Below, piece by piece: positions 1-35,002 of a stretch of DNA of 35,002 nucleotides. Every line of letters starts with the position of its first letter. Positions within the stretch are counted from its first letter, which is position 1. The notes below the pieces were generated by a model, which had not been told where the DNA came from, searched no databases, and was given only the letters and a program-made list of their open reading frames with translations. The DNA is from a virus (lineage: Duplodnaviria > Heunggongvirae > Uroviricota > Caudoviricetes), in the IMG/VR virus record IMGVR_UViG_2534681936_000014, positions 1-35,002 of that record. One strand, 5' to 3'. The position numbers and the translations under genes were made by a program.

Positions 1-780
1 TTACTCTGCGTCTACCATGTCACATGCAAATTGAGTGTGTTTATATTCAGAATCAAATTTTGGTTCAATTACTTCAAGACGCATGTCACCTTTTTTGCTT
101 ACCCAGATGTTATAAGTGTTAACACGTCCAATAGTATCCTGTTTGGATTTACCTTCCATTGCGTTTGGATTCTCTTTAGATGGCTTGAGACTTGATTTAT
201 AAACATCATACTTGTCGGAATACACAAAAGATACCGGAACATCGTCTACCATTTTGATCTTAAGTTTACCGCCGTTATTATCAAAAGTTTTGTTTCCGTA
301 GAGTTTATCTTTTACAGCTTCTGTTTCCTCACCATCGATAACTTTCCATGTAAATTTTGTAGTACATGCGTAAATCGCGGTAACATTCAGTTTCTTTACT
401 TCTTCCTGTTTCGGTTGTTCTTCTTCAACCTTCGCAGAAGTCTCTGAATCGCTCTCTGACGCGGTTTCTTCTTTAGATAATACATTCATCAAGTTTTGGA
501 TTTGAGCGTTGTATACAGCCTCCAGTGGCTGAATCTGCCCGATATTGATCATTGTATCACGAACAGTTTTATTCCAGTTGCGTTGCTCTTGTTTCAGAGA
601 TGGATCAATCTTAACAGCTTTAACATATACTTCATGAAGTTTCGAATCCAGTGCGGAGATAGACTCGTTAGCACAAATAAACTTCTCTGATTTGGTAGTA
701 GCCTTAGTGCAATCAAAGGACGCAGCATCAGCACCGAAAGCAGTAGCAGAAAGCACGATAGCAGCGATAATGTTTTTCAT
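1..780 (-). CDS. Secreted/periplasmic protein, N-terminal domain resembling DUF1311 (LprI-like lysozyme-inhibitor fold)
   Basis: 259-aa ORF with ATG at 778-780 and AGAGG RBS; N-terminal signal peptide MKNIIAAIVLSATAFGADA; motif FDCTKA..E..IC...L..LD..L...Y...QR.W recalled as typical of DUF1311; C-terminal half unassigned. Confidence 0.55.
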   Translation of the reverse strand: MKNIIAAIVLSATAFGADAASFDCTKATTKSEKFICANESISALDSKLHEVYVKAVKIDPSLKQEQRNWNKTVRDTMINIGQIQPLEAVYNAQIQNLMNVLSKEETASESDSETSAKVEEEQPKQEEVKKLNVTAIYACTTKFTWKVIDGEETEAVKDKLYGNKTFDNNGGKLKIKMVDDVPVSFVYSDKYDVYKSSLKPSKENPNAMEGKSKQDTIGRVNTYNIWVSKKGDMRLEVIEPKFDSEYKHTQFACDMVDAE

Positions 781-3769: not shown

Positions 3770-3949
3770 TTAACAAACTTGAACGTTAATCTTTATCTGA
3801 ATTTCGTATTTCTTCATTAGCTTATAGAATCCGCTTCTATCAATTCCTTCCTTCTTAAAGAAATTCTCGCCGCCTCGTTCAGTATCGCCATAAAAGCGTT
3901 TAGCAATATCAACAATCATTTCACGAGTAAACTTAACAGGTCTAGCCAT
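3770..3949 (-). CDS. Small HTH DNA-binding protein (Hin/resolvase-type HTH fold), member of a three-gene paralog family
   Basis: ATG at 3949-3947 with GAGGAA RBS (the ORF-track start at 3964 is a TTG); motif RPVKFTREMIVDIAKRFY...GIDRSGFYKLMKKY aligns with the 7015-7245 and 7275-7877 products. Confidence 0.5.
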   Translation of the reverse strand: MARPVKFTREMIVDIAKRFYGDTERGGENFFKKEGIDRSGFYKLMKKYEIQIKINVQVC

Positions 3950-4138
3950 AAGTAGATTCCTCAAATGTGGATTAATAAGGACAATAAAAAGAGCTTTTCG
4001 CCCTCGATACTTCTATTTATAAAAGTCATTTCAGAAAACCCTGTAAAACCACTGTATATCTGATCAGTGGGAGCACGAATTGCTAAAGAGAAGATTAATA
4101 ATTAATCAATTCGTACATTATTCAATCGAAAAGGCACT

Positions 4139-4172
4139 GTATGTTTAACCAGTGCCGTATGTGTTAACAGTG
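4139..4172. repeat. Imperfect tandem direct repeat, 2 x 16 bp (GTATGTTTAACCAGTG / GTATGTGTTAACAGTG), each containing a GTTAAC-like palindrome
   Basis: Read directly at 4139-4154 and 4157-4172 in the ORF-free region. Confidence 0.6.
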
Positions 4173-4306
4173 AATCAGGGGATTTTCAGAAGTGAACAAT
4201 CATTTCATGCATGTATTTATACACGAAAAAATCTTGCTTATCATCAATATGGGGATTGTTTCGAAAATTTCAACCCCTACCAACGAGAAAAAGTATAAAA
4301 TAATCC

Positions 4307-4320
4307 TTGACAGTTGTCAA
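4307..4320. promoter_or_regulatory. Perfect 14-bp palindrome TTGACAGTTGTCAA (operator-like; contains a TTGACA -35-like hexamer on both strands)
   Basis: Read directly; a related inverted repeat TTGTCAA-N6-TTGACAA occurs at 5702-5721. Confidence 0.45.
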
Positions 4321-4345
4321 TACACTTGACCTAAGCGAGAAATGA

Positions 4346-4517
4346 CTATCAAAATTTTTGTGTGAAAATGGCGGATAACGATTATCAACCTTTATAACCT
4401 ATTATAGCACGGCGACCTTTTGATAATTCTTTTTAAATCATGCATTTACAGCGATTTTTGGTGATTTTCCGGTTAAATAATATACAAGAATTTTCTATCA
4501 AAATTTTTGATGAAAAA
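4346..4517. repeat. Pair of 23-bp direct repeats (CTATCAAAATTTTTG[T/A]TGAAAA) 149 bp apart flanking an AT-rich segment with TTATCAA DnaA-box-like motifs
   Basis: Copies at 4346-4368 and 4495-4517 differ at 1-2 positions; GATTATCAAC (4380-4389) and TTGATAATTC (4421-4430) in inverted orientation between them. Confidence 0.55.
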
Positions 4518-4638
4518 CCTACACTACAAACCTACGCTTTAAAGGGATTGGCCTACACTACACTAGCCAGTAAACCTACACTATAACACCCTCAAACCTA
4601 CACTATGAAACCTACACACCTACACTAACCCTACACTT
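4518..4638 (+). repeat. Iteron-like array: 7 or more copies of CCTACACTA (variants CCTACGC, CCTACACACC, CCTACACTT) with irregular 10-30 bp spacing
   Basis: Copies read at 4518, 4531, 4552, 4575, 4597, 4611/4618 and 4629; all in one orientation; no ORF. Confidence 0.7.
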
Positions 4639-5211
4639 CAATCTCATAATTGTATGATCTTGAAAGACATTTCACCCCACAGACCATAGAATATAAAATT
4701 CGAACTAACGTTCTCCTTTTTGCTCGTTTTCTCTCACTACGTTCAAGAAAGATCTCGCAAAAAGAATACGGCGTAGCCGTGCGCGAAGCGCCCATCAACA
4801 CCTTCTAAGACCTGCAAGCAGGATTCGAAAGGGATTGGATAGTTCGCTTCGCTCACGTTCACGCCTACGGCGTTCACTCGCTTTTGAAAGGATTTTCTTA
4901 GAAAGGGATTTAATACTAGTTACTAACTGATTCTAGTAAACGAACGAAGTGAGTAACAATCACTTTCTAGAAAGGTATTGGTATCCCTTCGGGATTGCAA
5001 CCTTCGGTTGCTAAATTGCTTCCTGATTATTATTTCTCCAAAAGAAAGATTCTTATATTCTAAAGATACTTCTTCGTTTTGATGATGATTTAATCAAATC
5101 ATGAAGGAGGGCTTTGCCCGACTGAATACAATCACTCTTTTCATAATAACAAGAATTTTCTCTTTATAAATAATATTAGATTGATTCACTTTCTTTTAGA
5201 GGATTTCCACT

Positions 5212-5947: not shown

Positions 5948-6045
5948 GATAAAAACTTCTTATAAATAAAATTGTTCCGGTGATGCTGCCGGAACTAGGA
6001 GGATCAATATCATTATCGCAAAACCGTTTAAGGGGAATTACTACT

Positions 6046-6879
6046 ATGAATACTGTTACTACTATGAATACTGCTGTTAAAACTGCTTCCGTGTCTCTGG
6101 TTGTTGATAACGAAGTTGCAAAAATGACTCTTCGTGAAATTGCCGACCTTATTGGAGTTCGTTTTTCAAACCTTGAAACTTCTATGAACCGACTGGTTGA
6201 ACGCCAAGTTATCCGAAAACCTGCAACGCAGAATTTCGAGAAAATCAATAACTTAGGGTTTGCTGTTACTGTTAAAGATTATGTGTTTGAGGGTGAGCAA
6301 GGTCGCTTAGATTCGATTGTCTTGATTGCTCAAAACGTACCGGAATTTACTCGCCAACTGGTTGACCGTTGGAATTATCTGGAAGAGAAACTGAAAACCG
6401 CCAATAATACTCCTGTTAACCCGTATGCAGACTTTGAAGAAACCGATTGGATCGAACTGGCATTAGATGAAAAACGCAAAAATAAAAAACTGATTGAGCT
6501 ACACATTCGCAAATCCGTAGATAGCCATTCTATGACACGTCTGTTAGGCGCTAAAAAGGGCGCTACGAAGGTTAAAGAAGCACTGACGGCCTTACGTACT
6601 GCTGGATACATTGAGCGCGTCTATGATGAAAATAACAAGCCGTGTGGGTATGTTGCTAATGACTCTTCTCTGTCTTTCTGCCGCATGAATGCTCACTACC
6701 AACTTGAGTTTACTGTTGATGTTCTTCCGGTGCTGGTTGAATTGGGCGTTTTGGAAGAAGAACAGAAAGCAACTCTTAAACTACCGCAGCCAAATAACAC
6801 TATTCTGATTCAAAACAAAGCTGCTAAACAGATTCGTGAATCAGGTAACGTAATTTCCCTTGTTGATTTTGGGATCTGA
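6046..6879 (+). CDS. Putative phage regulatory protein (Rha/antirepressor-like N-terminal HTH segment); function uncertain
   Basis: Internal ATG at 6046 with AAGGGGA RBS (ORF-track start 5980 is a GTG); segment MTLREIADLIGVRFSNLETSMNRLVERQ resembles Rha-type DNA-binding domains from memory. Confidence 0.45.
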   Translation: MNTVTTMNTAVKTASVSLVVDNEVAKMTLREIADLIGVRFSNLETSMNRLVERQVIRKPATQNFEKINNLGFAVTVKDYVFEGEQGRLDSIVLIAQNVPEFTRQLVDRWNYLEEKLKTANNTPVNPYADFEETDWIELALDEKRKNKKLIELHIRKSVDSHSMTRLLGAKKGATKVKEALTALRTAGYIERVYDENNKPCGYVANDSSLSFCRMNAHYQLEFTVDVLPVLVELGVLEEEQKATLKLPQPNNTILIQNKAAKQIRESGNVISLVDFGI

Positions 6880-7014: not shown

Positions 7015-7245
7015 TCAAATTCCTGTTGCTTCTACCATTTCACCGTCAACCTGAACAAAGAATTTCAAATCAACTTTATGGAGTGATTTGTAGAATTGAG
7101 CGATTGAAATACCGTGTTCACTCAATACTTGTTCTTTTTCGGCTTTACCTTTCGGCGCTTGATAGTACGCTTTTACAATCGCTGCCAGTTGTTCACGATT
7201 AAAACGGGCAGGGCGACCGCGAGTAGCTTTAGTAGTCATAGTCAT
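7015..7245 (-). CDS. Small DNA-binding protein: AT-hook-like RGRPAR arm plus Hin/resolvase-type HTH
   Basis: Likely ATG at 7245 or 7239 (ORF-track start at 7272 is a GTG); TRGRPARFNREQLAAIVKAYY...GISIAQFYKSLHK matches the pattern of the Hin DNA-binding domain (GRPRAI...GVSTLYRY) from memory. Confidence 0.55.
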   Translation of the reverse strand: MTMTTKATRGRPARFNREQLAAIVKAYYQAPKGKAEKEQVLSEHGISIAQFYKSLHKVDLKFFVQVDGEMVEATGI

Positions 7246-7274
7246 TTTCTCCAAATTAAAGTGAATGTTCACCT

Positions 7275-7877
7275 TTATTTAGAGGACTTACATTTTATCG
7301 GAAAAAGTTCTCCATCGTCAACCGACATAAAGAACTCTGCCTTAATCCCGTACTTCTTCAACCGTGAATAATATGTACCCCGACTAATATCAACCTTGCG
7401 CAGCACTTCGAAGAACTCTTTAGGATTCCTGTAATAGTGGCTATATCGCACGTTAGCGAGTTCTACAAACAATTCCCTTGTATCACCATAGCCTTTCTTG
7501 AAAGCCACGTTACGATAGCGTGTAATGGCATGATTCAATCTCTTCTGTTTAAGCACTTCCCTGATCGGTGTCCACTGCAACCGATAGATCGGACCGTCAT
7601 CCACTCGATAATAACGCTTGATATCAAAATCAAACCATTCACGGACTCGCTGAAACTCTGTCTGTGATGTTCGGTGCTTCTTAAAGAAGTTGTGAATATC
7701 TGTATATCCCTGATCGCGATACAACTCTATTAAAATTTGCTTCGCTTCCTCGCGACTAAAGCCGGATGTTGTGTAATCAGTCTTCTTGTGATGGTGCTTA
7801 ACTGGCAAACGATATTCATGATCGGTACAAGACAAGGCTAATTCTAATTCATCTCTTTCTTGCTGATTAATTAGCAT
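7275..7877 (-). CDS. Protein with two tandem copies of the same Hin-like HTH module (200 aa)
   Basis: ATG at 7877 with AAAGGGGG RBS; contains [29 protein letters not shown] and [20 protein letters not shown]...[13 protein letters not shown], both similar to the 3770 and 7015 products. Confidence 0.55.
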
Positions 7878-15773: not shown

Positions 15774-18700
15774 ATGCAATCAATCCAATTTAAACGAACT
15801 AATGTTTCTGGCAAAAAACCAACGCCGGAACAATTACAGGTCGGTGAGGTAGCAATCAACCTTAAAGACCATGTTATTTTTACCAAAGACCGAGATCATG
15901 AAGTAGTTCAAATCTCTGTTTCTCCTGAAACTCACGCGGCACTAGAATCTAAAGTTGATGCTAACAAACAAGAATTGGATAGCACAATTGCAGTAAATGA
16001 CCGCAATATTCACGCTAAAGTAGATGAAATTAAACAAACTACTGATTCTACTATCGCAGCAAATCATGCAGAAATTAACAATAAAGTTGATGTAATTAAA
16101 CGCGAAACCGACGCGACAATCGAAGCTAATAAAAATAAAGCTGCTTCCGATCTTGCTGGTGTTAAAGCTGAATTGTCGGATACCATCAACGCTAATAAAA
16201 ATGCGGCTGCTGTAGCAACTCAGGAACTGGACACCCGCATCAATAAAAAAGTTGATGATATTAAATCCCGTACTGATGCAACCATCGCAAGCAATCACAA
16301 AGCAATCAATGACAAAGTTGATTTGATTAAGGCAGAAACTGACCGCACTATCGCAGCAAATCAAGCCTATGCGGAAAATCAGTTAACTGACACCTACAAT
16401 AACCTTACTGGTGTGATTGCAGCTAATAAGCAAGAGGCAGCGGATAGCGTCGCAGCATTAACCCGTGATGTTGAAGCCAAAAATACAGCAATTCATAGCA
16501 AAATTGACAACAACAAGGTTTACACTGATTCTGAATTGGCACGCTTAGAAAGCCGTATTGATGCAGCCGATGGATCTGCTGATGGCAAGTACATCAAAAA
16601 ACACGTAAACACTTATACTGATGGTTATTTGCTGTCTAAGACCGCAAACTATTTTGATGATCCAAATGCGCGTAATCTTGATTACTTTGGTGCATTCCGC
16701 ATGAATGACCTGGCGGGTCATATTGCAATGATCTTGCATGTTCCGCATCCATCTGGTGTTAATCATGCTCGTGGCTTTGAGTTCACTTATGGGTCTAATC
16801 CACATGCTACTGTAAGAACATACGGCTATGATGAATTAGGTAATTTGTCATATTCTCACCGCATGTATCATGAAGGCGATAAACCTACTCCGGCTGAAAT
16901 TGGCGCATATTCGAAAGCAGAAATTGACCGACTGTTCCAGAAGACGCTTAATTTTGGGATCGAGGGTGGTTGGTTTAAACTCGGTAGTTTAACACTGCCA
17001 CAGCAACACGGTCGTAGTGCTAAGATCCGCTTAGTTGGTGGTAACGGTTATAACGTCGGGATGAATGGACAAGCCAATATTATCGAATTGGTGATTCGAT
17101 GCGGCAACAATAGCCCGAAAGGTGTTGTATTCAATGCTTATTATAGCATCTGGTATCACGAACAACATTTTTGTGCAATTCCTACCGATGGTGATAATTA
17201 CGATCTTTACGCTTACTACGGTGCACATACAGGATTTGTTTTAGCAGAATATCAAGTTTCTTCCGGTGGTGTTTCTTTAAACCTGTTGGATACTCCTGAA
17301 TATCTGGGTGGTGAAAAACCTGTTGCAGATGAAATTTTTGATGCTCTTAACATTTCATCGTTCAATAACTTTAGCAACCGTGGGACGTTAAATTTTGCTG
17401 GAAACCATCAAGGCCAATATGACATTGAGCATATGAACGAACAACAAACTAACAGCAAAAAGATGTTGCGTCGCTTCCGTAGTTCTGCTCCTGCCACTAT
17501 CTGGCACGAAAGTGTTGATGACCAAAATTATCGTCTTGCTACTGGTTATGACGATGTAAACCAACAATTATTGCTTTCGGCTGCAACCGGGTTACATGTC
17601 AAGAGATTAACATTGGATGGCGGTGTTGGTAATGCCGGTATTGACATTCGTCGAGGACCAAACGAATCAAGCCATTTTAATTTTATGGATTATCGCACTG
17701 GTCAAGATGTTCGTAATGGCTGGTTTGGTTTTGGTGATTTGACGACCAAAGATTTTATTTGGTGGAACGATAACGGCCAAAACTCGATAAACCTGATTGA
17801 AGATGGCGAGTTGCATATTACTGGTGGTAAAGGCCAGAAAATTGTAATGAATAGCGAAGTTGCATTATCCGAAAATGCTCGTTTGGCTGTCAAAGGCGGT
17901 AACTATGGTTTGATATTACGCAATGATGGTTCTAGCTTCCATATTCTTACTACCGATTTAAAAGATTCTTTTGGTAATTGGAATAATCGCAGACCATTCA
18001 GTTATGATTTTGCGGACGGTGGATTATATTTAGGTGGTACTGAAACTGCTCGTTGTTTGCATCTTGGAATTGATGGTAGCACTCGTCTCGAAGACAACCT
18101 GTTCTTTAAAGCTGGTTCTCGTCAATCTATGGACTATATGGAACTCGTCCATTGGGGTGCAAGCAATACAGGTCGAAATAACGTTTTAAGTCTTCGTGAC
18201 TCAAAAGGATTTTTAGCCGAATTTGAACGTCTATGGGATAATACTACCAAAAACACCTTCTTCGGGAAAATGAAAATTAATCGTGGATCTGATGCAATTA
18301 TCATGAATGCCGAAAGTGGTGATTCGTCTGTATATTTGTTGGGTACGTGTGCTGACAACAACAACTGGTATATTGGTAAAGGCGGTGGTGATAATGGATT
18401 AGCGTTCTATAGCTATGCTACTAATGCCGCGATAAATCTTACGAACGCTGGGGATATTGCATTAAGTCCAAAAGGCGTCGAAATGGTTCATGTTAATAAC
18501 GCTCGATTATATGTTCATGGTGAACGTTGGACCGCTAGTCAACCAGGTGATTGGGGTAATCAGTGGCGAGTGGAAGCGCCAATATTCGTCGATCATGGCT
18601 ATGTTGGACAAGACTGTTATTATCCGATTGTTAAAGCAAGAAGTTTAATCACCAATCAAGGGTATACAACTGCCGTCGATTTTGGTATGCGTCGTATCCC

Positions 18701-19199
18701 TAACAATTGGGGACAAGCAATTATTCGTGTTGGATCTGCGGAAAACTCACCTGATAACGGACACCCTCAAGCTGTATTTGAGTTCCATCACGATGGGTTC
18801 TTTTACACGCCGGGTAACGGTAGCTTTAACGATGTGCATATTCGATCTGATGAACGTCTTAAGATCAACAAGGAAGAATTGGAAGAAGGTGCGCTGGATA
18901 AATTAAACAGCTTAACCGTATATTCCTACGATAAAGTTAAATCACTTTCTGATGATACAGTGGTTGGACGCGAATTAGGTGTCATTGCTCAAGATGTGGA
19001 AAAAGTTATGCCGGAAGCTGTGCACGTTTGCAGCGATGGAGATACCGAAAATCCAGGAGAAATTAAAACTATTTCTGTTTCTAGTATCAATGCTCTTTTC
19101 GTGAAAGCCTTTCAGGAATTAACGACTAAGTATGATGCGATGAACGAAGAGTTGAAAGCTGTTAAAGCTGAACTTGCGGCTATTAAATCCTGTAAATGA
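15774..19199 (+). CDS. Tail fiber protein with C-terminal S74-type intramolecular chaperone (self-cleaving) domain
   Basis: 1141 aa; N-terminal shaft built from about 22-aa repeats (KVDxIKxxTDxTIAAN); C-terminal region ...SDERLKINKEELEEGALDKLNSLTVYSYDKV...GVIAQDVEKVMPEAVH... matches the signature of endosialidase / T5 L-shaped-fiber chaperone domains from memory. Confidence 0.85.
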   Translation: MQSIQFKRTNVSGKKPTPEQLQVGEVAINLKDHVIFTKDRDHEVVQISVSPETHAALESKVDANKQELDSTIAVNDRNIHAKVDEIKQTTDSTIAANHAEINNKVDVIKRETDATIEANKNKAASDLAGVKAELSDTINANKNAAAVATQELDTRINKKVDDIKSRTDATIASNHKAINDKVDLIKAETDRTIAANQAYAENQLTDTYNNLTGVIAANKQEAADSVAALTRDVEAKNTAIHSKIDNNKVYTDSELARLESRIDAADGSADGKYIKKHVNTYTDGYLLSKTANYFDDPNARNLDYFGAFRMNDLAGHIAMILHVPHPSGVNHARGFEFTYGSNPHATVRTYGYDELGNLSYSHRMYHEGDKPTPAEIGAYSKAEIDRLFQKTLNFGIEGGWFKLGSLTLPQQHGRSAKIRLVGGNGYNVGMNGQANIIELVIRCGNNSPKGVVFNAYYSIWYHEQHFCAIPTDGDNYDLYAYYGAHTGFVLAEYQVSSGGVSLNLLDTPEYLGGEKPVADEIFDALNISSFNNFSNRGTLNFAGNHQGQYDIEHMNEQQTNSKKMLRRFRSSAPATIWHESVDDQNYRLATGYDDVNQQLLLSAATGLHVKRLTLDGGVGNAGIDIRRGPNESSHFNFMDYRTGQDVRNGWFGFGDLTTKDFIWWNDNGQNSINLIEDGELHITGGKGQKIVMNSEVALSENARLAVKGGNYGLILRNDGSSFHILTTDLKDSFGNWNNRRPFSYDFADGGLYLGGTETARCLHLGIDGSTRLEDNLFFKAGSRQSMDYMELVHWGASNTGRNNVLSLRDSKGFLAEFERLWDNTTKNTFFGKMKINRGSDAIIMNAESGDSSVYLLGTCADNNNWYIGKGGGDNGLAFYSYATNAAINLTNAGDIALSPKGVEMVHVNNARLYVHGERWTASQPGDWGNQWRVEAPIFVDHGYVGQDCYYPIVKARSLITNQGYTTAVDFGMRRIPNNWGQAIIRVGSAENSPDNGHPQAVFEFHHDGFFYTPGNGSFNDVHIRSDERLKINKEELEEGALDKLNSLTVYSYDKVKSLSDDTVVGRELGVIAQDVEKVMPEAVHVCSDGDTENPGEIKTISVSSINALFVKAFQELTTKYDAMNEELKAVKAELAAIKSCK
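15952..16380 (+). repeat. Intragenic tandem repeats, about 66-bp period, encoding the fiber shaft
   Basis: Successive units starting near 15952, 16018, 16084, 16249 and 16315 all begin AAAGTxGATG...ATTAAA...ACxGA. Confidence 0.6.
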
Positions 19200-24299: not shown

Positions 24300-25073
24300 A
24301 TGCGAAAATTCCATTACGTTTATCACACCACTATTAAATCTAATCGCTCTGGTAAAATCTATCATTACGTCGGAAAAAGAACAACTACAAATCTAGACGA
24401 TGGATATGTGGGGTCGGGTAAAGTTATTAAAATGATGAAGCGTAAAAATAAAGAATCAGAAACCCCGATATATGAATTTGAAGTTGTTCGCTCAAAATTG
24501 TTTGATACTGCCGAGGAAGCGTTTGAATGTGAAATTCTGTTAGTGGAGGCAGCACGCGAAAAATGGGGGCGTGGTGTATGTCTTAATATTGCTCCTGGTG
24601 GTGTCGGTGGTTTTGATGGTGGTGAACATCACCCACTGTACGGAAAGAAACATAAGCCAGAAACAATCGAGAAATTTAGAAAGAACAACGCAGGTGAAGG
24701 AAACCCGATGTTTGGACGGGTAAGCCCAAAACGAGGAAGGAAGATAACTAATCCAGAAACGTTAGCTAAAATGTCCGCTGCAATGAAAGGCGCTAATAAT
24801 CCTCGATACGGCGCAATAGTCACCGAAGAAACACGCGCAAGAATTAGTAAGGCTTTATCTGGTCGAAAGATTACCGATCCTGTAGAAAAGGCTAACAGAA
24901 CTAAAGCAATTAGGGAATCGAAAGGTCAAGCATGTTGGCAACATTACGATGAAATTCGTCGTGTGTGGATCGAAAACGGTAAGCCCGGCGCGGCAAGATT
25001 ACGAACAATCATGATTGGCTTAGGCCATCCAAAATATGATCTTCGTAGAATGTGCGAAGACTTCAAGAAATAA
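24300..25073 (+). CDS. GIY-YIG homing endonuclease with NUMOD3-like repeats
   Basis: 257 aa; N-terminal HYVYHT...GKIYHYVGKRTT...GYVGSGK and FECEIL align with the I-TevI catalytic-domain pattern (GIYQIKN...VYVGSA...FECSIL) from memory; three G-x-x-H/NP-x-[YF]G-x-x-x-x-x-E-T-x-x-K-[IM]S repeats (HPLYGKKHKPETIEKF, NPMFGRVSPKRG...PETLAKMSAAM, NPRYGAIVTEETRARISKAL). Confidence 0.8.
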   Translation: MRKFHYVYHTTIKSNRSGKIYHYVGKRTTTNLDDGYVGSGKVIKMMKRKNKESETPIYEFEVVRSKLFDTAEEAFECEILLVEAAREKWGRGVCLNIAPGGVGGFDGGEHHPLYGKKHKPETIEKFRKNNAGEGNPMFGRVSPKRGRKITNPETLAKMSAAMKGANNPRYGAIVTEETRARISKALSGRKITDPVEKANRTKAIRESKGQACWQHYDEIRRVWIENGKPGAARLRTIMIGLGHPKYDLRRMCEDFKK

Positions 25074-30939: not shown

Positions 30940-31293
30940 ATGTTAAGCAAACATTTTTCTCGCAAGGAATTTAAATGTAAATGCGGAAAATGTGATTATG
31001 ATACAATCGACGCTGAATTACTGGTAATTCTTGAGGATGTACGAGAGCACTTCGGTAAACCAGTGATTATTAACAGTGGCAACCGTTGCCCGACTCATAA
31101 CAAGAATGTAGGCGGGGCAGCCAATAGCTATCACGTTCGAGGCCGCGCGGCTGACATTGTTATCAAGGGTGTCTCACCTGATATTGTTCATGCTTATCTT
31201 GATGGGAAATATCCTACTCAATACGGCTTAGGAAAATATAAAACATTTACGCATATCGATTCCAGATCAAAAAAATCACGGTGGAATGGATAA
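30940..31293 (+). CDS. Endolysin, zinc metallopeptidase of the M15 family (L-alanyl-D-glutamate peptidase type)
   Basis: 117 aa; AAGGGGGTAA RBS; motif SGNRCPTHN...SYHVRGRAADI...H.D matches the His/Asp zinc-binding pattern of M15 peptidases such as the T5 endolysin, from memory. Confidence 0.7.
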   Translation: MLSKHFSRKEFKCKCGKCDYDTIDAELLVILEDVREHFGKPVIINSGNRCPTHNKNVGGAANSYHVRGRAADIVIKGVSPDIVHAYLDGKYPTQYGLGKYKTFTHIDSRSKKSRWNG

Positions 31294-31295
31294 AA

Positions 31296-31326
31296 CAAAA
31301 GCGCCTCTGGTGGGCGCTTTTTTGTT
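31296..31326 (+). terminator. Rho-independent terminator at the end of the plus-strand late operon
   Basis: AGCGCC-TCTGGTG-GGCGCT followed by TTTTTGTT. Confidence 0.75.
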
Positions 31327-31502
31327 AGAATATGCTGGCGACGTTAGCTATATTTCTGACCATTTTTTCATTATAGACAAATATACCGCAGACGATAAAG
31401 TCGTTTTTGACGAAGTAGATCCGTCTCTGGTTGAAGTAATGAAAGAACCGGAAGACCTAGAGCTTGATTTAAGCCAATTATAGACTCTCTAACGCAATTA
31501 AA

Positions 31503-31528
31503 TTAAAAAGGGGTACAAATGTACCCCT
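31503..31528 (-). terminator. Rho-independent terminator for the minus-strand cassette (convergent with the plus-strand terminator)
   Basis: GGGGTAC-AAAT-GTACCCC preceded on the plus strand by A5, which is a T5 run after the stem on the minus strand. Confidence 0.65.
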
Positions 31529-31565
31529 TAAAGCGTTTGGTTCGTTATACGGCGATTTAGGCCGC

Positions 31566-31823
31566 CTATGATTTATTTTCTTGTTCTATGAAAATCTTTC
31601 TCACCTCATCAGAATAAATGTCTAGTGATTCCTCATAACATTTTCTGTATTCATCGTAATTACTGGTGGTCTTTTGACATAGCAATTTCAATGTCTTATG
31701 TGCTCCATCAATGAAAGCATCTTCTCTATAGGTTAGCGGTCTACGCATTTCTTGGTCTACGGTTGCCAATGCCAGGCAAGAATTCATAGATAAAATCAAA
31801 CCTAAAATCTTAATCATCTTCAT
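31566..31823 (-). CDS. Small secreted (possibly lipo-) protein, translationally coupled to the serine recombinase
   Basis: ATG at 31823 lies 4 nt after the recombinase TAA stop (ORF-track start 31838 is a TTG); signal peptide MKMIKILGLILSMNSCLALA; about 85 aa. Confidence 0.5.
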   Translation of the reverse strand: MKMIKILGLILSMNSCLALATVDQEMRRPLTYREDAFIDGAHKTLKLLCQKTTSNYDEYRKCYEESLDIYSDEVRKIFIEQENKS

Positions 31824-31827
31824 TAGC

Positions 31828-33507
31828 TTAAATTCCAAATTCCTGTAATGGACCTGGTATTTCTTCTTCTGGTTTCCAGTTCTTATCTGTCAGCATGTCT
31901 AAACATGGATGCAGAACAAGCCCGTTACTCTCCAGAATCTGCCTATCATTGATAGTCTTCAAATCAACGAAGATCCGGCCTTTCCTCGGTCCTCTTGAAT
32001 TTTCTATTACAACTCTCTGGGTCTTGCCATCGATGTATTCCAGTACAAACAAGTTTTTGTACTTGTCAATCCTGCTACACCCGATCCGTTTTAGAGCTTG
32101 CTTAATCTTAAACCGGACCTTAATGCGATCCTCGTTGTAAACATCTTCTAAATCAAATTCTGCGAGCTTCTCCCAGCCTTGAGAGTCAACAGAATACATT
32201 TCCTCTTCTGCCATCTTAATTTGATTGTAGAGTGTTTCACGCTCGCTATTGAGGGTAGTAATCTGATCGGCTAGCTCCTTCGTTGCTCCTGTCATAGCAG
32301 AAAGGGTAATCAGGTTATCAATCTTGCGTGATATTTCATCAATCTGTACTTTCAAAGCCGGAACCGGATTAGCCTTATCTTCAGCAATCCAGATTTTATC
32401 AGCCAGCAATTGCAATACAGCTTTCTCTAATTGGTCGCCGCGAAAACTCCAGTTTGTATGCACACATTCAATACGACTAGAGCGCATTGCATCGCATGAA
32501 TAACGATATTGGTTAGGCCGTCTGTTTGTTCCTTTCACCTTAACCATAGCGGAACCGCAATGTTCACATTTCAATAGACCAACACCACTAAGCAAGGGAA
32601 TAGGTTTAACTTCTTCTTTGTCTCCAAAGTTACATGCTCTAACACCAATGCTTTTCTTAAGGTGATAAAACTCAGCGTCATCTAGCACACGAGGATAATA
32701 ATCCTTTAACTCATACTTAACGCCATCTACAGAGATTTCCTTGATACCAATCAAAGCGCGGGTATGGAACAACCTTTCAATCATTGCCCGTGACCAGTTT
32801 GAATGCCTCTTGTGACTTGCGGCTGGTGGTGGTGTGTATGTCGCGTTAAGGTGATCCAGTATCTCGGCGGTTGACCGTCCATTCCTGCGTAATTCCACAA
32901 CTTCCTGAACAATAGGGAAGAAGACCGGATGAGGAAGCACATAACCAGATGTGGTATCAGTCCACCACATATTCTTTCCAATTTCCTCGATTGCAACAGC
33001 CGGATTTTGTGGATTTTCTTGATGAGCTTTAATCTTAATCAGTGCGCTTGAGTTAGTACGATTGCGCTTAGTCTGGCTTTCCTCATTACCACGGATGAAT
33101 AAAAGGATGGAGAACATCAGGTCCATCGGGTTAGCGGTAACAGTATCCAGCGAGTAGATCTTGTTATCCATGCCAGTAACAATGGTTATCCCCCTACGGA
33201 TGATTGAAAGGAATAACTCCTGCGCACTGACAATATCGGCACGGGATAAACGGTCCAAGTTTTCGATGAATAGCCAGCTACCAACAGGAACGGATCTACC
33301 TATTGCATCAAGGAAACGAGATAGCGCCCCTGTTTTGGAGTTAGCACCCTTAAACGCAGATACACCCAGATCCTGATAATCATTTACCAGTTCAAGGTCA
33401 TACTTTACCGCAATCTCTCTAGCCATCCTGATTTGTCGTTCATAACTCGAACCATCATTCTGACGCATAGACGAGAAACGAATATACGAATACAGTTTAG
33501 TTTTCAT
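31828..33507 (-). CDS. Large serine recombinase (resolvase-type catalytic domain, recombinase domain, zinc ribbon and coiled-coil C-terminal region)
   Basis: About 559 aa from ATG 33507; N-terminal YSYIRFSSMRQNDGSSYERQ with the catalytic Ser in the position typical of serine recombinases; Cys pairs (CEHCGS...CDAMRSSRIEC) and coiled-coil region downstream. Confidence 0.85.
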   Translation of the reverse strand: MKTKLYSYIRFSSMRQNDGSSYERQIRMAREIAVKYDLELVNDYQDLGVSAFKGANSKTGALSRFLDAIGRSVPVGSWLFIENLDRLSRADIVSAQELFLSIIRRGITIVTGMDNKIYSLDTVTANPMDLMFSILLFIRGNEESQTKRNRTNSSALIKIKAHQENPQNPAVAIEEIGKNMWWTDTTSGYVLPHPVFFPIVQEVVELRRNGRSTAEILDHLNATYTPPPAASHKRHSNWSRAMIERLFHTRALIGIKEISVDGVKYELKDYYPRVLDDAEFYHLKKSIGVRACNFGDKEEVKPIPLLSGVGLLKCEHCGSAMVKVKGTNRRPNQYRYSCDAMRSSRIECVHTNWSFRGDQLEKAVLQLLADKIWIAEDKANPVPALKVQIDEISRKIDNLITLSAMTGATKELADQITTLNSERETLYNQIKMAEEEMYSVDSQGWEKLAEFDLEDVYNEDRIKVRFKIKQALKRIGCSRIDKYKNLFVLEYIDGKTQRVVIENSRGPRKGRIFVDLKTINDRQILESNGLVLHPCLDMLTDKNWKPEEEIPGPLQEFGI

Positions 33508-33526
33508 ACCATTTCCAAACAAAAAC

Positions 33527-33556
33527 GCCCCTACCGCGTATTATAACGATAGGGGC
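33527..33556 (-). other. 30-bp imperfect palindrome (GCCCCTACCG-CGTATTATAA-CGATAGGGGC) just upstream of the recombinase start; terminator of the upstream gene and/or recombination-site candidate
   Basis: Read directly; on the minus strand the hairpin is followed by GTTTTTGTTTGG. Confidence 0.5.
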
Positions 33557-33570
33557 TAGGTGATTAAAGA

Positions 33571-33984
33571 TTAAAGAATTTCACGGCAGCTAATCAGGGA
33601 ATAAGACGTATCACCTTTTTTAACATCAAATATAGGCGCGCCATCAACAGAATGCAGATACTTGATGTAGGATTTACCATCTTCGGAACCATAATATTCT
33701 TCTTTCTCGTTCTTATCTTCTTTCAATTTAGGGCTTTTGATTGTCTTATCATATACCGGATCGTTGAAAGCAAATTGACTATTATCATCATTCACGCGAA
33801 CTTTCACACCGATAAAACCACGATATTTTCCAGACGGTGCATGATAATAACGGTCGCCATCACGAAGATATTGTGTATCATCTCCTTTATGTTCGAAGTA
33901 GGAATTACACACATAATAGGTATTAGCATTTGCAGCACCAACCAAACCCAGAGCAAGAACAACACCAGCGATAATCTTTTTCAT
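33571..33984 (-). CDS. Secreted/periplasmic protein (137 aa), unknown function
   Basis: ATG at 33984 with AAGAGGAA RBS; signal peptide MKKIIAGVVLALGLVGAANA. Confidence 0.6.
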   Translation of the reverse strand: MKKIIAGVVLALGLVGAANANTYYVCNSYFEHKGDDTQYLRDGDRYYHAPSGKYRGFIGVKVRVNDDNSQFAFNDPVYDKTIKSPKLKEDKNEKEEYYGSEDGKSYIKYLHSVDGAPIFDVKKGDTSYSLISCREIL

Positions 33985-34029
33985 AGTAGAATTTCCTCTT
34001 GTTGTTTGAATTACGATATATTTATATCA

Positions 34030-34152
34030 TTAAAAGTTAATGCTAATAATCAGACCAAACACAACCGCACCAATCAAATCAATCCAGTTAATACACAGCG
34101 AATATTCTTTCTTGAATGTCTTAGATGAAATGCCATCATGAAATTGTTTCAT
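34030..34152 (-). CDS. Small membrane peptide (40 aa)
   Basis: ATG at 34152 with GGGGTGAG RBS; translation MKQFHDGISSKTFKKEYSLCINWIDLIGAVVFGLIISINF; below ORF-track cutoff. Confidence 0.3.
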   Translation of the reverse strand: MKQFHDGISSKTFKKEYSLCINWIDLIGAVVFGLIISINF

Positions 34153-34252
34153 TGCTCACCCCATACTAACGACAATATAAGAAAGACTAATCATGGTTGT
34201 GAGACTACCTCCCACGAATGAGATAAAAGCTAACATGTTTGATTCTCCATTT

Positions 34253-34278
34253 AAAAAGCGGTGGGAATTACACCCACC
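34253..34278 (-). terminator. Rho-independent terminator on the minus strand after the 34293-34730 gene
   Basis: GGTGGG-AATTACA-CCCACC preceded on the plus strand by A5, which is a T-run after the stem on the minus strand. Confidence 0.6.
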
Positions 34279-34292
34279 AAATTAGAAATTAA

Positions 34293-34730
34293 TTAAGCGC
34301 GAACGATGGTCAGAGTATCCAGCAAACCTTTTTCGTATAATTCGAAACATGTTTTATATTGCTCAATCTTCCAACCGTAGCGGGTGATCTTATTCAGTAG
34401 AATAATCACGGTATTCTCATCTAGGTATTGTCCTTGCTTACCAATTACATATGACTCGCGGGATAGTCTCAGCTTACGGAAACCTTTAACACCTAATTCC
34501 TTAGCCACCGCTTTAATCTCGTTAATCTCACCTTCTGCGGCTACATATTCAGCGTCGATAATCTCAGTTGATGATCTCAGTGCTACCAGAACTAAGGCCA
34601 TTGCTTCTTCTTCGGTACGAGCAACACCAGCTTTCTCGAAAGTCATCTCACCAAATTTACGAGTCATAATATTGAACATTGTCTGTATTCCGTTTAAATC
34701 GGCGGGAATAGTACCAGCCAAATTAGACAT
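34293..34730 (-). CDS. Hypothetical protein (145 aa)
   Basis: ATG at 34730 overlapping the upstream TAA (TAATG coupling); no motif recognised. Confidence 0.5.
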   Translation of the reverse strand: MSNLAGTIPADLNGIQTMFNIMTRKFGEMTFEKAGVARTEEEAMALVLVALRSSTEIIDAEYVAAEGEINEIKAVAKELGVKGFRKLRLSRESYVIGKQGQYLDENTVIILLNKITRYGWKIEQYKTCFELYEKGLLDTLTIVRA

Positions 34731-35002
34731 TACTTCTTGCTGATAAACTCTTTAGCGATAAAGTTGATTACTTCTTTCAGCTTCTTGTCTGTATCGATGC
34801 ACGCTGGTAATTCTTCTTTAATATCCTGCGGCAGATACACATTGCCTTTAAAGTGGAGGAAACCATCATTACCAATCATGTAGGAGAACATCCATTCACA
34901 ATCGTTATCCGCTTCCCAGAACGCCACGGTCTCATCCCCAATCAAGGTAATGTCCATGTTGCGACGCGCTGCGTAGTTGATGATTGCTTTACCGATGTTC
35001 AT
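34730..35002 (-). CDS. Hypothetical protein (90 aa)
   Basis: ATG exactly at the window edge (35002-35000); apparently complete, but an upstream start outside the window cannot be excluded. Confidence 0.45.
   Translation of the reverse strand: MNIGKAIINYAARRNMDITLIGDETVAFWEADNDCEWMFSYMIGNDGFLHFKGNVYLPQDIKEELPACIDTDKKLKEVINFIAKEFISKK

Follow-up and report, generated by a model that had tools for sequence, protein, structure and literature searches.

Probable integrase role of a large serine recombinase in a hicB-inserted Escherichia coli prophage, and a closely related ycdX-inserting counterpart

This study concerns the large serine recombinase (LSR; gene int) encoded on the IMG/VR virus record IMGVR_UViG_2534681936_000014; the window referred to throughout is the whole stretch of DNA that was analyzed, positions 1 to 35,002 of that record (35,002 nucleotides). 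The window is an Escherichia coli prophage of 35,303 bp, siphovirus-like and trimmed at its first and last genes. The LSR is very probably the integrase of this hicB-inserting prophage, with att sites at the prophage ends and with target choice apparently made by the segment that spans its recombinase and zinc-ribbon domains (RD-ZD); its recombination activity we infer from sequence. A preliminary description of this DNA had offered the integrase of a temperate phage as one possible role for the recombinase, and the precise insertion in hicB, together with prophage ends that coincide with the att sites, agrees with that proposal. The features of the int locus are as follows:

31828-33507, minus strand: LSR gene (int), hicB-specific 'H' allele, 559 aa, recognized by Pfam and PHROG
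33517-33556, minus strand: 40-nt element made of an intrinsic-terminator hairpin (33527-33556) and a T-tract, with TATAAT in the loop
31566-31823, minus strand: 85-aa open reading frame (ORF) with a signal-peptide-like N-terminus, a lineage-specific insertion between the int stop codon and the closing terminator
31508-31529, minus strand: terminator hairpin closing the minus-strand unit, convergent with the late operon (-14.5 kcal/mol, z = -3.8)
31483, plus strand: end of the late/lysis operon, faced by the minus-strand terminator

The layout of this locus given in the preliminary description was reproduced: a 559-aa serine recombinase following the lysis genes (ORF 31828-33507 on the minus strand, with three Pfam domains), a palindrome at 33527-33556 acting as a terminator about 20 bp before the LSR start (a conserved hairpin and T-tract, the 3' end of the hairpin lying 19 nt before the int ATG at 33507), an LSR stop codon 4 nt from the ATG of a signal-peptide protein at 31566-31823, and closure of the unit at a terminator convergent with the late operon (hairpin 31529-31508, operon end at 31483).

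The cassette DNA matches chromosomal sequence of E. coli FDAARGOS_946 and O55:H7 DEC5A at 100% identity. The annotation of FDAARGOS_946 reads, in order, hicA, a hicB "missing C-terminus", phage genes only, a hicB "missing N-terminus", and ydcR; therefore, the window represents the prophage itself, cut at its terminal genes, and the IMG/VR prophage excerpts of the same family are likewise trimmed at gene ends. The length of 35,303 bp is the distance between the two core AA dinucleotides of the att sites, obtained by arithmetic on the junction coordinates. Besides the LSR and an M15 endolysin, the annotation of the FDAARGOS_946 prophage includes the small and large terminase subunits, the portal, a fused protease/capsid protein, and the tail tube, tail tip, and tape measure proteins. 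The packaging, head, tail, and lysis gene set is complete in the element, and the LSR is the sole recombinase annotated in it, with no second integrase or transposase. Carriers of the prophage make up 57 of 5426 complete E. coli genomes, with all copies chromosomal and zero on plasmids; a comparison of the cassette DNA with 50,697 phage records and 72,556 plasmids returned zero matches.

Both junctions of the prophage with its host were read directly, attL as ...GCCAGGCGAATT-GGCAA-CCCGAATGTAGTCAACCCAAAATAAC... and attR as ...GTTATTGTGGGTACATGATATTA-GGCAA-ACCTAAACAAGAG..., and GGCAA is all that attL and attR (hence attP and attB) have in common. The attL core lies approximately 260 nt before position 1 of the window, and the attR core GGCAA lies 40-44 nt past its right end. 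Assembled from both prophage ends, attP is approximately 54 bp long (GTTATTGTGGGTACATGATATTAGGC-AA-CCCGAATGTAGTCAACCCAAAATAAC) and displays dyad symmetry at 18 of 26 positions about the core AA, versus 5-11 of 26 about every other center; the AA symmetry center was recovered again in the attP of two other lineages. Strand exchange would take place at this central AA dinucleotide. On the circular phage, attP lies approximately 1.54 kb upstream of the int start codon. The att search that had been suggested earlier therefore succeeded in its object, since an attP/attB pair was identified with attB in hicB of E. coli, and failed in the places proposed for attP (31480-31570 or 33510-33570); both of these intervals are intrinsic terminators, and attP is formed by the prophage ends, just outside the window. 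A repeat search of 31300-35002 found no att-like repeat and no long inverted repeats bounding an invertible segment.

The joined host flanks constitute attB and are 100% identical to hicB of O157:H7 PV15-279, and this attB is uninterrupted in 5281 of the 5426 complete E. coli genomes; since the joined flanks equal the uninterrupted hicB, the insertion is precise, with neither duplication nor loss. Codon 102 of HicB (138 aa), where the crossover falls, belongs to the HTH_3 domain (residues 88-134); the antitoxin domain (residues 3-67) lies before it and is left intact. The lysogen retains hicA and a truncated hicB' encoding residues 1-101 plus eight phage-encoded residues, NPNVVNPK, and precise excision would rebuild hicB. 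With the DNA-binding domain of HicB interrupted and its toxin-neutralizing domain spared, lysogeny may therefore deregulate the host toxin-antitoxin system, a change that excision would repair. In Listeria, an A118-like phage inserts in comK, splitting the gene, and excision restores it. In Bacillus subtilis, the SPbeta prophage splits the host gene spsM, which is restored on excision (PMC5499854). The prophage described here resembles both of these systems in its intragenic attB, its serine integrase, and an excision that would rebuild a reading frame, but differs from them in that the interrupted gene is an antitoxin with its neutralizing domain intact and in that regulated excision is without evidence here.

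The int start codon is the ATG at 33507, homologs beginning with MKTKLY; an alternative TTG at 33522 falls within the T-tract of the upstream terminator. The Pfam matches comprise Resolvase (PF00239, residues 6-153, E 2e-14), Recombinase (PF07508, residues 198-286, E 1e-7), and Zn_ribbon_recom (PF13408, residues 310-368, E 7e-10), and among the PHROG families phrog_95 'integrase' matched at E 3e-58, with a weaker match to 'DNA invertase' (E 7e-11). The catalytic motif is present (Y8-x-R10-x-S12...Q16 and D85-R86-L-S88-R89); 15 homologs, down to 33% identity, show no variation at R10, Q16, D85, R86, S88, and R89 or at the zinc cysteines C314, C317, C338, and C348, and at least 90% of them have S12. 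Residues ~370-460 are a candidate region for the coiled-coil motif of the zinc-ribbon domain, which governs directionality in LSRs. The dN/dS of the LSR versus its relatives is approximately 0.18, indicating purifying selection. The position of the gene is conserved across E. coli, Salmonella, E. fergusonii-type, and E. tarda relatives, and a check of homologous prophages, as had been recommended, placed the LSR gene near one end.

In its combination of a resolvase catalytic domain, a recombinase domain, and a zinc ribbon, the LSR is like the integrases of PhiC31, Bxb1, TP901-1, and A118/LI and like SPbeta SprA. As for characterized phage LSRs, attP is approximately 50 bp with imperfect dyad symmetry about a non-palindromic central dinucleotide, attB shares few core bases with it, and the gene is near attP. 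It differs from characterized LSRs in that a family profile barely detects similarity to solved structures, and in the catalytic domain only (PhiC31, E 2e-6; TP901-1, 1e-4), and in coming from a Gram-negative enterobacterial host with unrelated att sites; the last ~85 residues are uncovered by matches to other phage LSRs. The nearest proteins in the phage genome collection are the serine recombinases of Burkholderia phages Bcep176 (gp53), JC1, and Bcep22 and the YbcK-like proteins of the lambdoid E. coli phages 4A7 and Perceval, at 28-30% identity over 80-85% of the LSR. The YbcK-like genes lie within lambdoid genomes already equipped with an integrase, whereas the LSR is the sole recombinase here and adjoins an att site. 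Small serine invertases and resolvases (Hin, Gin, Tn3), which act on sites within one replicon, are built differently, having ~180-200 aa with a catalytic domain and a C-terminal helix-turn-helix in place of the 559 aa with recombinase and zinc-ribbon domains. No description of WP_000850652, of a hicB-inserting E. coli prophage, or of its att sites was found in the searchable (incomplete) literature, and the prophage sequence and att site were absent from the accessible part of the supplementary text of Durrant et al. 2022.

Several observations weigh against the assignment of the LSR as a working integrase. The dyad symmetry of attB is weak (8 of 26, not above background). The excised attP junction (ATATTWGGSAACCCGAATGTAG) was sought in IMG/VR and in JGI metagenome contigs with no match; all IMG/VR copies are prophage excerpts, and contigs of ~35 kb with the LSR gene, when checked for circularity, were integrated copies or excerpts trimmed at gene ends. 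No repressor, replication gene, or recombination directionality factor (RDF)/excisionase, the factor that LSRs need for excision, was recognized by homology across the 35.3-kb prophage, and at least one LSR copy, that in NZ_CM149869.1 (hit H83), is disrupted by IS5 and IS1; from these two observations, some copies may therefore be decaying. If the whole prophage were defective and the LSR an inactive relic kept by vertical inheritance, the missing attP junction, the unrecognized repressor and replication genes, the IS-disrupted copy, and a deletion scar in the hotspot adjoining int would all fit. We nonetheless consider such a relic unlikely: the ORF is unbroken, retains every catalytic and zinc residue, and is under purifying selection, the packaging, head, tail, and lysis genes are complete, and the same precise hicB junction is found in diverse E. 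coli backgrounds, in strains from human, pig, cattle, chicken, and water, with varied cargo and N-terminal alleles. This recurrence of one junction implies repeated integration and ongoing recombination among live phages.

It is also conceivable, at a very small probability, that the LSR belongs to a separate mobile element within the phage or acts as an invertase or resolvase. The closest phage-database homologs (~30% identity) do include YbcK-like proteins that lie inside lambdoid genomes and are not the integrases of those phages, and the weaker PHROG match to 'DNA invertase' points the same way. However, all relatives have the gene in one fixed place with respect to the end of the prophage; the prophage boundaries are exactly the att sites, with no other integrase or transposase in the element; the protein has a 559-aa three-domain architecture rather than that of a ~190-aa invertase; and 31300-35002 holds no long inverted repeats around an invertible segment. 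The unrelated inserted mobile element that had been named earlier as a refuting scenario is excluded.

The assignment of the LSR as the prophage integrase is extended by a set of sister prophages with a different target. A left-junction search showed that in strain UTME-9 the same left arm of the phage is joined to ycdX, beginning exactly at AA. The ycdX-inserting sisters (e.g., UTME-9, ETEC4090, and KSC64) have the same phage backbone, attP arms, and hairpin as the window prophage, but target ycdX rather than hicB: ETEC4090 agrees with the window throughout the P arm of attP, where UTME-9 has one mismatch, and in the P' arm UTME-9 and the window do not differ. The ycdX attB is AGCCATCCCGGCAATCCCAAATATGAAATAG, with insertion at the codons HPGNPKYEI; the hicB and ycdX attB sites have GG(C)AA in common, plus 11 of the first 15 right-arm positions. 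The UTME-9 LSR is 92% identical overall to that of the window, with the differences concentrated in residues 196-351. Between the two types, the catalytic domain is 99% identical, approximately 30 substitutions fall at residues 196-351, and identity over residues 190-370 is 83%. When loci with a visible host flank were counted, the two RD-ZD alleles were distributed as follows:

hicB loci, n = 11 (some near-duplicates): RD-ZD allele 'H' (residues 190-370), 96-100% identical to the window
ycdX loci, n = 10: RD-ZD allele 'Y' (residues 190-370), 98-100% identical to UTME-9 and 82-84% identical to the window

Target and RD-ZD allele therefore agreed at every locus counted (11/11 hicB with H, 10/10 ycdX with Y); this association is correlative, with near-duplicates among the loci. 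The N-terminal part comes in two alleles (79% identical), and their assortment is independent of the RD-ZD segment, with the combinations A+H, B+H, and A+Y at confirmed sites and the combination B+Y in L093, an IMG/VR excerpt without host flanks. One further locus, L106, combines a Y RD-ZD segment with an H-like C-terminus and is inserted in ycdX; because of this, the target determinant is narrowed to approximately residues 150-370. Segmental synonymous divergence (dS) between H and Y is 0.06 in the catalytic domain and 0.44 over residues 151-370, whereas two hicB phages with different N-termini gave 1.42 in the catalytic domain versus 0.08 over residues 151-370; therefore, the LSR gene is mosaic, its modules having been exchanged. 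The part of the enzyme that chooses the target appears to be the recombinase and zinc-ribbon domains, approximately residues 150-370.

The Salmonella and E. tarda relatives are inserted at the same ycdX codons. A separate LSR clade, 31-33% identical to the window LSR, also sits at the ycdX codons ...SHPGNP (L025, L029, L030, L031, and L036), in the opposite orientation relative to the gene, with Escherichia sp. ESNIH1, Pseudescherichia, Phytobacter, and Leclercia as hosts. The ycdX site appears to be a recurrent target of serine integrases; since the Salmonella relatives, the E. tarda relatives, and the 31-33% clade all sit there, ycdX is probably the older target and hicB the derived one. We tentatively suggest that the H and Y integrases may constitute a natural specificity switch, in which approximately 30 residues in RD-ZD would direct the same attP to different attB sites and hicB targeting would be a recent retargeting. 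If the substitutions are causal, the H/Y pair would map attB-recognition determinants with attP recognition unchanged. Integrases that are 92% identical, with a common attP, different attB sites, and natural chimeras, offer material for asking which residues read attB, a question central to retargeting LSRs for genome engineering, and the att pair is newly defined for an enterobacterial LSR very distant from those in use. A prophage integrase is routine in itself; the added value of this system lies in the H/Y pair and in the conserved terminator with TATAAT in its loop.

This terminator, read on the minus strand from 33556 to 33527, consists of 11 base pairs and an 8-nt loop, followed by GTTTTTGTTT, with a predicted folding energy of -20.5 kcal/mol (z = -3.5). 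The 40-nt element is near-invariant between the E. coli and Salmonella relatives, although their LSR genes are saturated at synonymous sites, and the hairpin is retained whichever gene is upstream, even in prophages that have no phage gene in front of it. The E. tarda version (LSR 60% identical) has a changed stem that still pairs (GCCCTGCT/AGCGGGGC), and its loop has shrunk to exactly TATAAT, the hexamer found in the loop of all four hairpin versions. Therefore, both the hairpin structure and TATAAT appear to be selected. The hairpin is absent from more distant LSR loci (31-40% identity) and is thus specific to the clade with at least 60% LSR identity. No further copies of the hairpin motif beyond chance were found in the window; terminator-like sites as such are enriched in the stretch (6 found vs. 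2.7 expected).

The conserved terminator would insulate int from transcription coming out of the upstream cargo genes, while the TATAAT in its loop may serve as the -10 element of an int promoter that is weak and possibly depends on an activator; transcripts from this promoter would start within the 3' arm and so escape termination. Gating of int expression by a -10 element in the terminator loop is a proposal that we put forward with less confidence than the specificity switch. The promoter scan tells against it, as the TATAAT site was not called and the best -35 candidates match 2-4 of 6 positions. The chances seem evenly balanced that the hairpin is a terminator and nothing else, with TATAAT having no promoter role and int being expressed by read-through or antitermination from upstream: the stem and T-tract match the intrinsic-terminator pattern, the -35 candidates match poorly, and the cargo genes upstream of the element need a terminator, but the invariance of TATAAT across the four hairpin versions, including that of E. 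tarda, and the retention of the hairpin where no phage gene precedes it do not sit easily with a terminator function alone.

At the other end of int, the stop codon TAA (31828-31830) is followed by 4 nt (GCTA) and then by the ATG at 31823 of the 85-aa ORF. The preliminary description noted that such tight coupling of a recombinase to an exported protein is not standard for an integrase; the idea that the arrangement is meaningful was not supported. Alignment with the prophages in CP062211 and CP041628 shows 31569-31825, nearly coextensive with the ORF, to be a clean 257-bp indel; there, the int stop is directly followed by GCGGCCTAAATCG... and the terminator, and the 31508-31529 terminator is conserved directly after the int stop in relatives without the 85-aa ORF. 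Of 40 loci, those with the ORF all have an LSR essentially identical to that of the window (0-2 aa changes), and among the 57 prophage-bearing complete genomes it is found in 18, with one copy each and always in the same place. Its homologs are confined to its own cluster (word-indexed search plus a full HMMER scan of 1.8 billion representative proteins); no Pfam, PHROG, or NCBIfam match and no PDB fold match was obtained, and PGAP annotated it in 0 of 18 carrier genomes. Seven copies differ by four synonymous changes, one nonsynonymous change (D57G), and one nonsense change (R33*). The encoded protein has two cysteines, and AlphaFold2 run on the single sequence gave a helical model (pLDDT 75, core >90).

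A functional, translationally coupled unit of the LSR and an 85-aa exported protein, for example an integrase with a superinfection-exclusion factor, is on these data quite unlikely. The 4-nt gap and the lack of a good Shine-Dalgarno sequence of its own mean that translation of the ORF would depend on ribosomes finishing int, and its signal-peptide-like N-terminus, cysteines, and helical model, as well as the four of six substitutions that are synonymous, are in keeping with such a unit; yet no relative with a more diverged LSR (60-98% identical) has the ORF, not even hicB prophages in which the DNA-binding region is 98% identical, the 257-bp insertion is confined to one sublineage (18/57 genomes), and the protein has no homolog or fold match, is unannotated by PGAP in 18/18 genomes, and meets a stop at codon 33 in one copy. 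The ORF may encode a real small periplasmic protein, the translation of which would have to couple to int. Being absent from relatives with an LSR 87-98% identical, however, it is by sequence comparison a recent passenger and not a partner of the recombinase.

In an E. tarda relative (L010:6812-7386), the LSR gene is followed on its own strand by an i-spanin/o-spanin-like gene pair, with the lipobox ISGC in the second protein; the slot filled by the 85-aa ORF in the window can therefore hold lysis genes. Prompted by this relative, the 85-aa ORF was considered as a spanin and rejected, since it is without a lipobox, a C-terminal membrane helix, or a partner.

The remaining features of the window that were considered are as follows:

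1-780, minus strand: LprI-family secreted protein, adjoining attL
3770-3964, 7015-7272, and 7275-7877: small proteins of the early region, no recognized function
5980-6879: Ant-like protein of the early region
24300-25073, plus strand: NUMOD3 homing-endonuclease-like gene between tail genes
33571-33984, minus strand: 137-aa secreted protein with a signal peptide, predicted beta-barrel, an exchangeable cargo gene upstream of int
34259-34279: terminator hairpin 3' of the 145-aa gene
34293-34730, minus strand: 145-aa gene (phrog_14908) between int and attP, variable in relatives (128-aa versions, absent in some)
34730-35002, minus strand: 90-aa gene (phrog_6147), the last phage gene before attR

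The 137-aa protein begins with a classical signal peptide (MKKIIAGVVLALGLVGAANA; 33925-33984) and belongs to a small family of six clusters from E. coli and Salmonella, with a dN/dS of 0.05-0.18. AlphaFold2 predicts an 8-stranded barrel (pLDDT 87.5), for which fold searches give a generic small beta-barrel only. The comparison extended to the PliC/MliC-type periplasmic lysozyme inhibitors, a family of small secreted 8-stranded barrels whose conserved loop motifs plug the active site of lysozyme, and gave no firm assignment. Many relatives (e.g., L064:750-995) have in its stead an 81-aa protein that shares the signal peptide but has an unrelated mature part, and others have nothing at this place; the alternation looks like cassette exchange behind a fixed export signal. 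Both secreted-protein genes, the 137-aa gene and the 85-aa ORF, are accessory cargo and not recombination machinery.

The stretch between the endolysin gene and int is likewise a cargo hotspot, holding a GIY-YIG nuclease and a DEAD-box helicase in some relatives, a UvsW-like helicase and UvsY in others, a spanin pair in E. tarda, and a deletion scar in the window. This scar is the 65-aa ORF after the endolysin gene (31286-31483, plus strand), an in-frame deletion fusion in which the beginning of a 147-aa gene runs into the final residues of a 332-aa one; CP041628 has both genes intact, and approximately 1.27 kb was lost from the hotspot of the window. On the attR side of int, the 90-aa gene has versions ~65-70% identical in Salmonella and other E. 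coli relatives and is absent in some. A 40-nt direct repeat (34255-34294 vs. 34696-34735, 78% identical) copies the start of the 145-aa gene just past its stop and overlaps the terminator at 34259-34279; it is probably a scar of module exchange.

An Rfam scan of the whole window returned nothing, including for 3965-5211, a 1.25-kb ORF-poor stretch with iteron-like direct repeats, namely four copies of AAACCTACACTAYAA (4515-4641) and three copies of TAGAAAGGGATT with a spacing of ~70 nt (4825-4979); this repeat-bearing region could be an origin or an operator region. The single DNA match of the prophage to any sequenced phage lies at 16637-19022, within the tail-fiber gene at 15774-19199 (plus strand), where identity is 79-86% to the gp37-like long-tail-fiber distal subunit of virulent T-even phages (MIZ4, KFS-EC, fPS-90, and others), a match that suggests exchange of a receptor-binding module.

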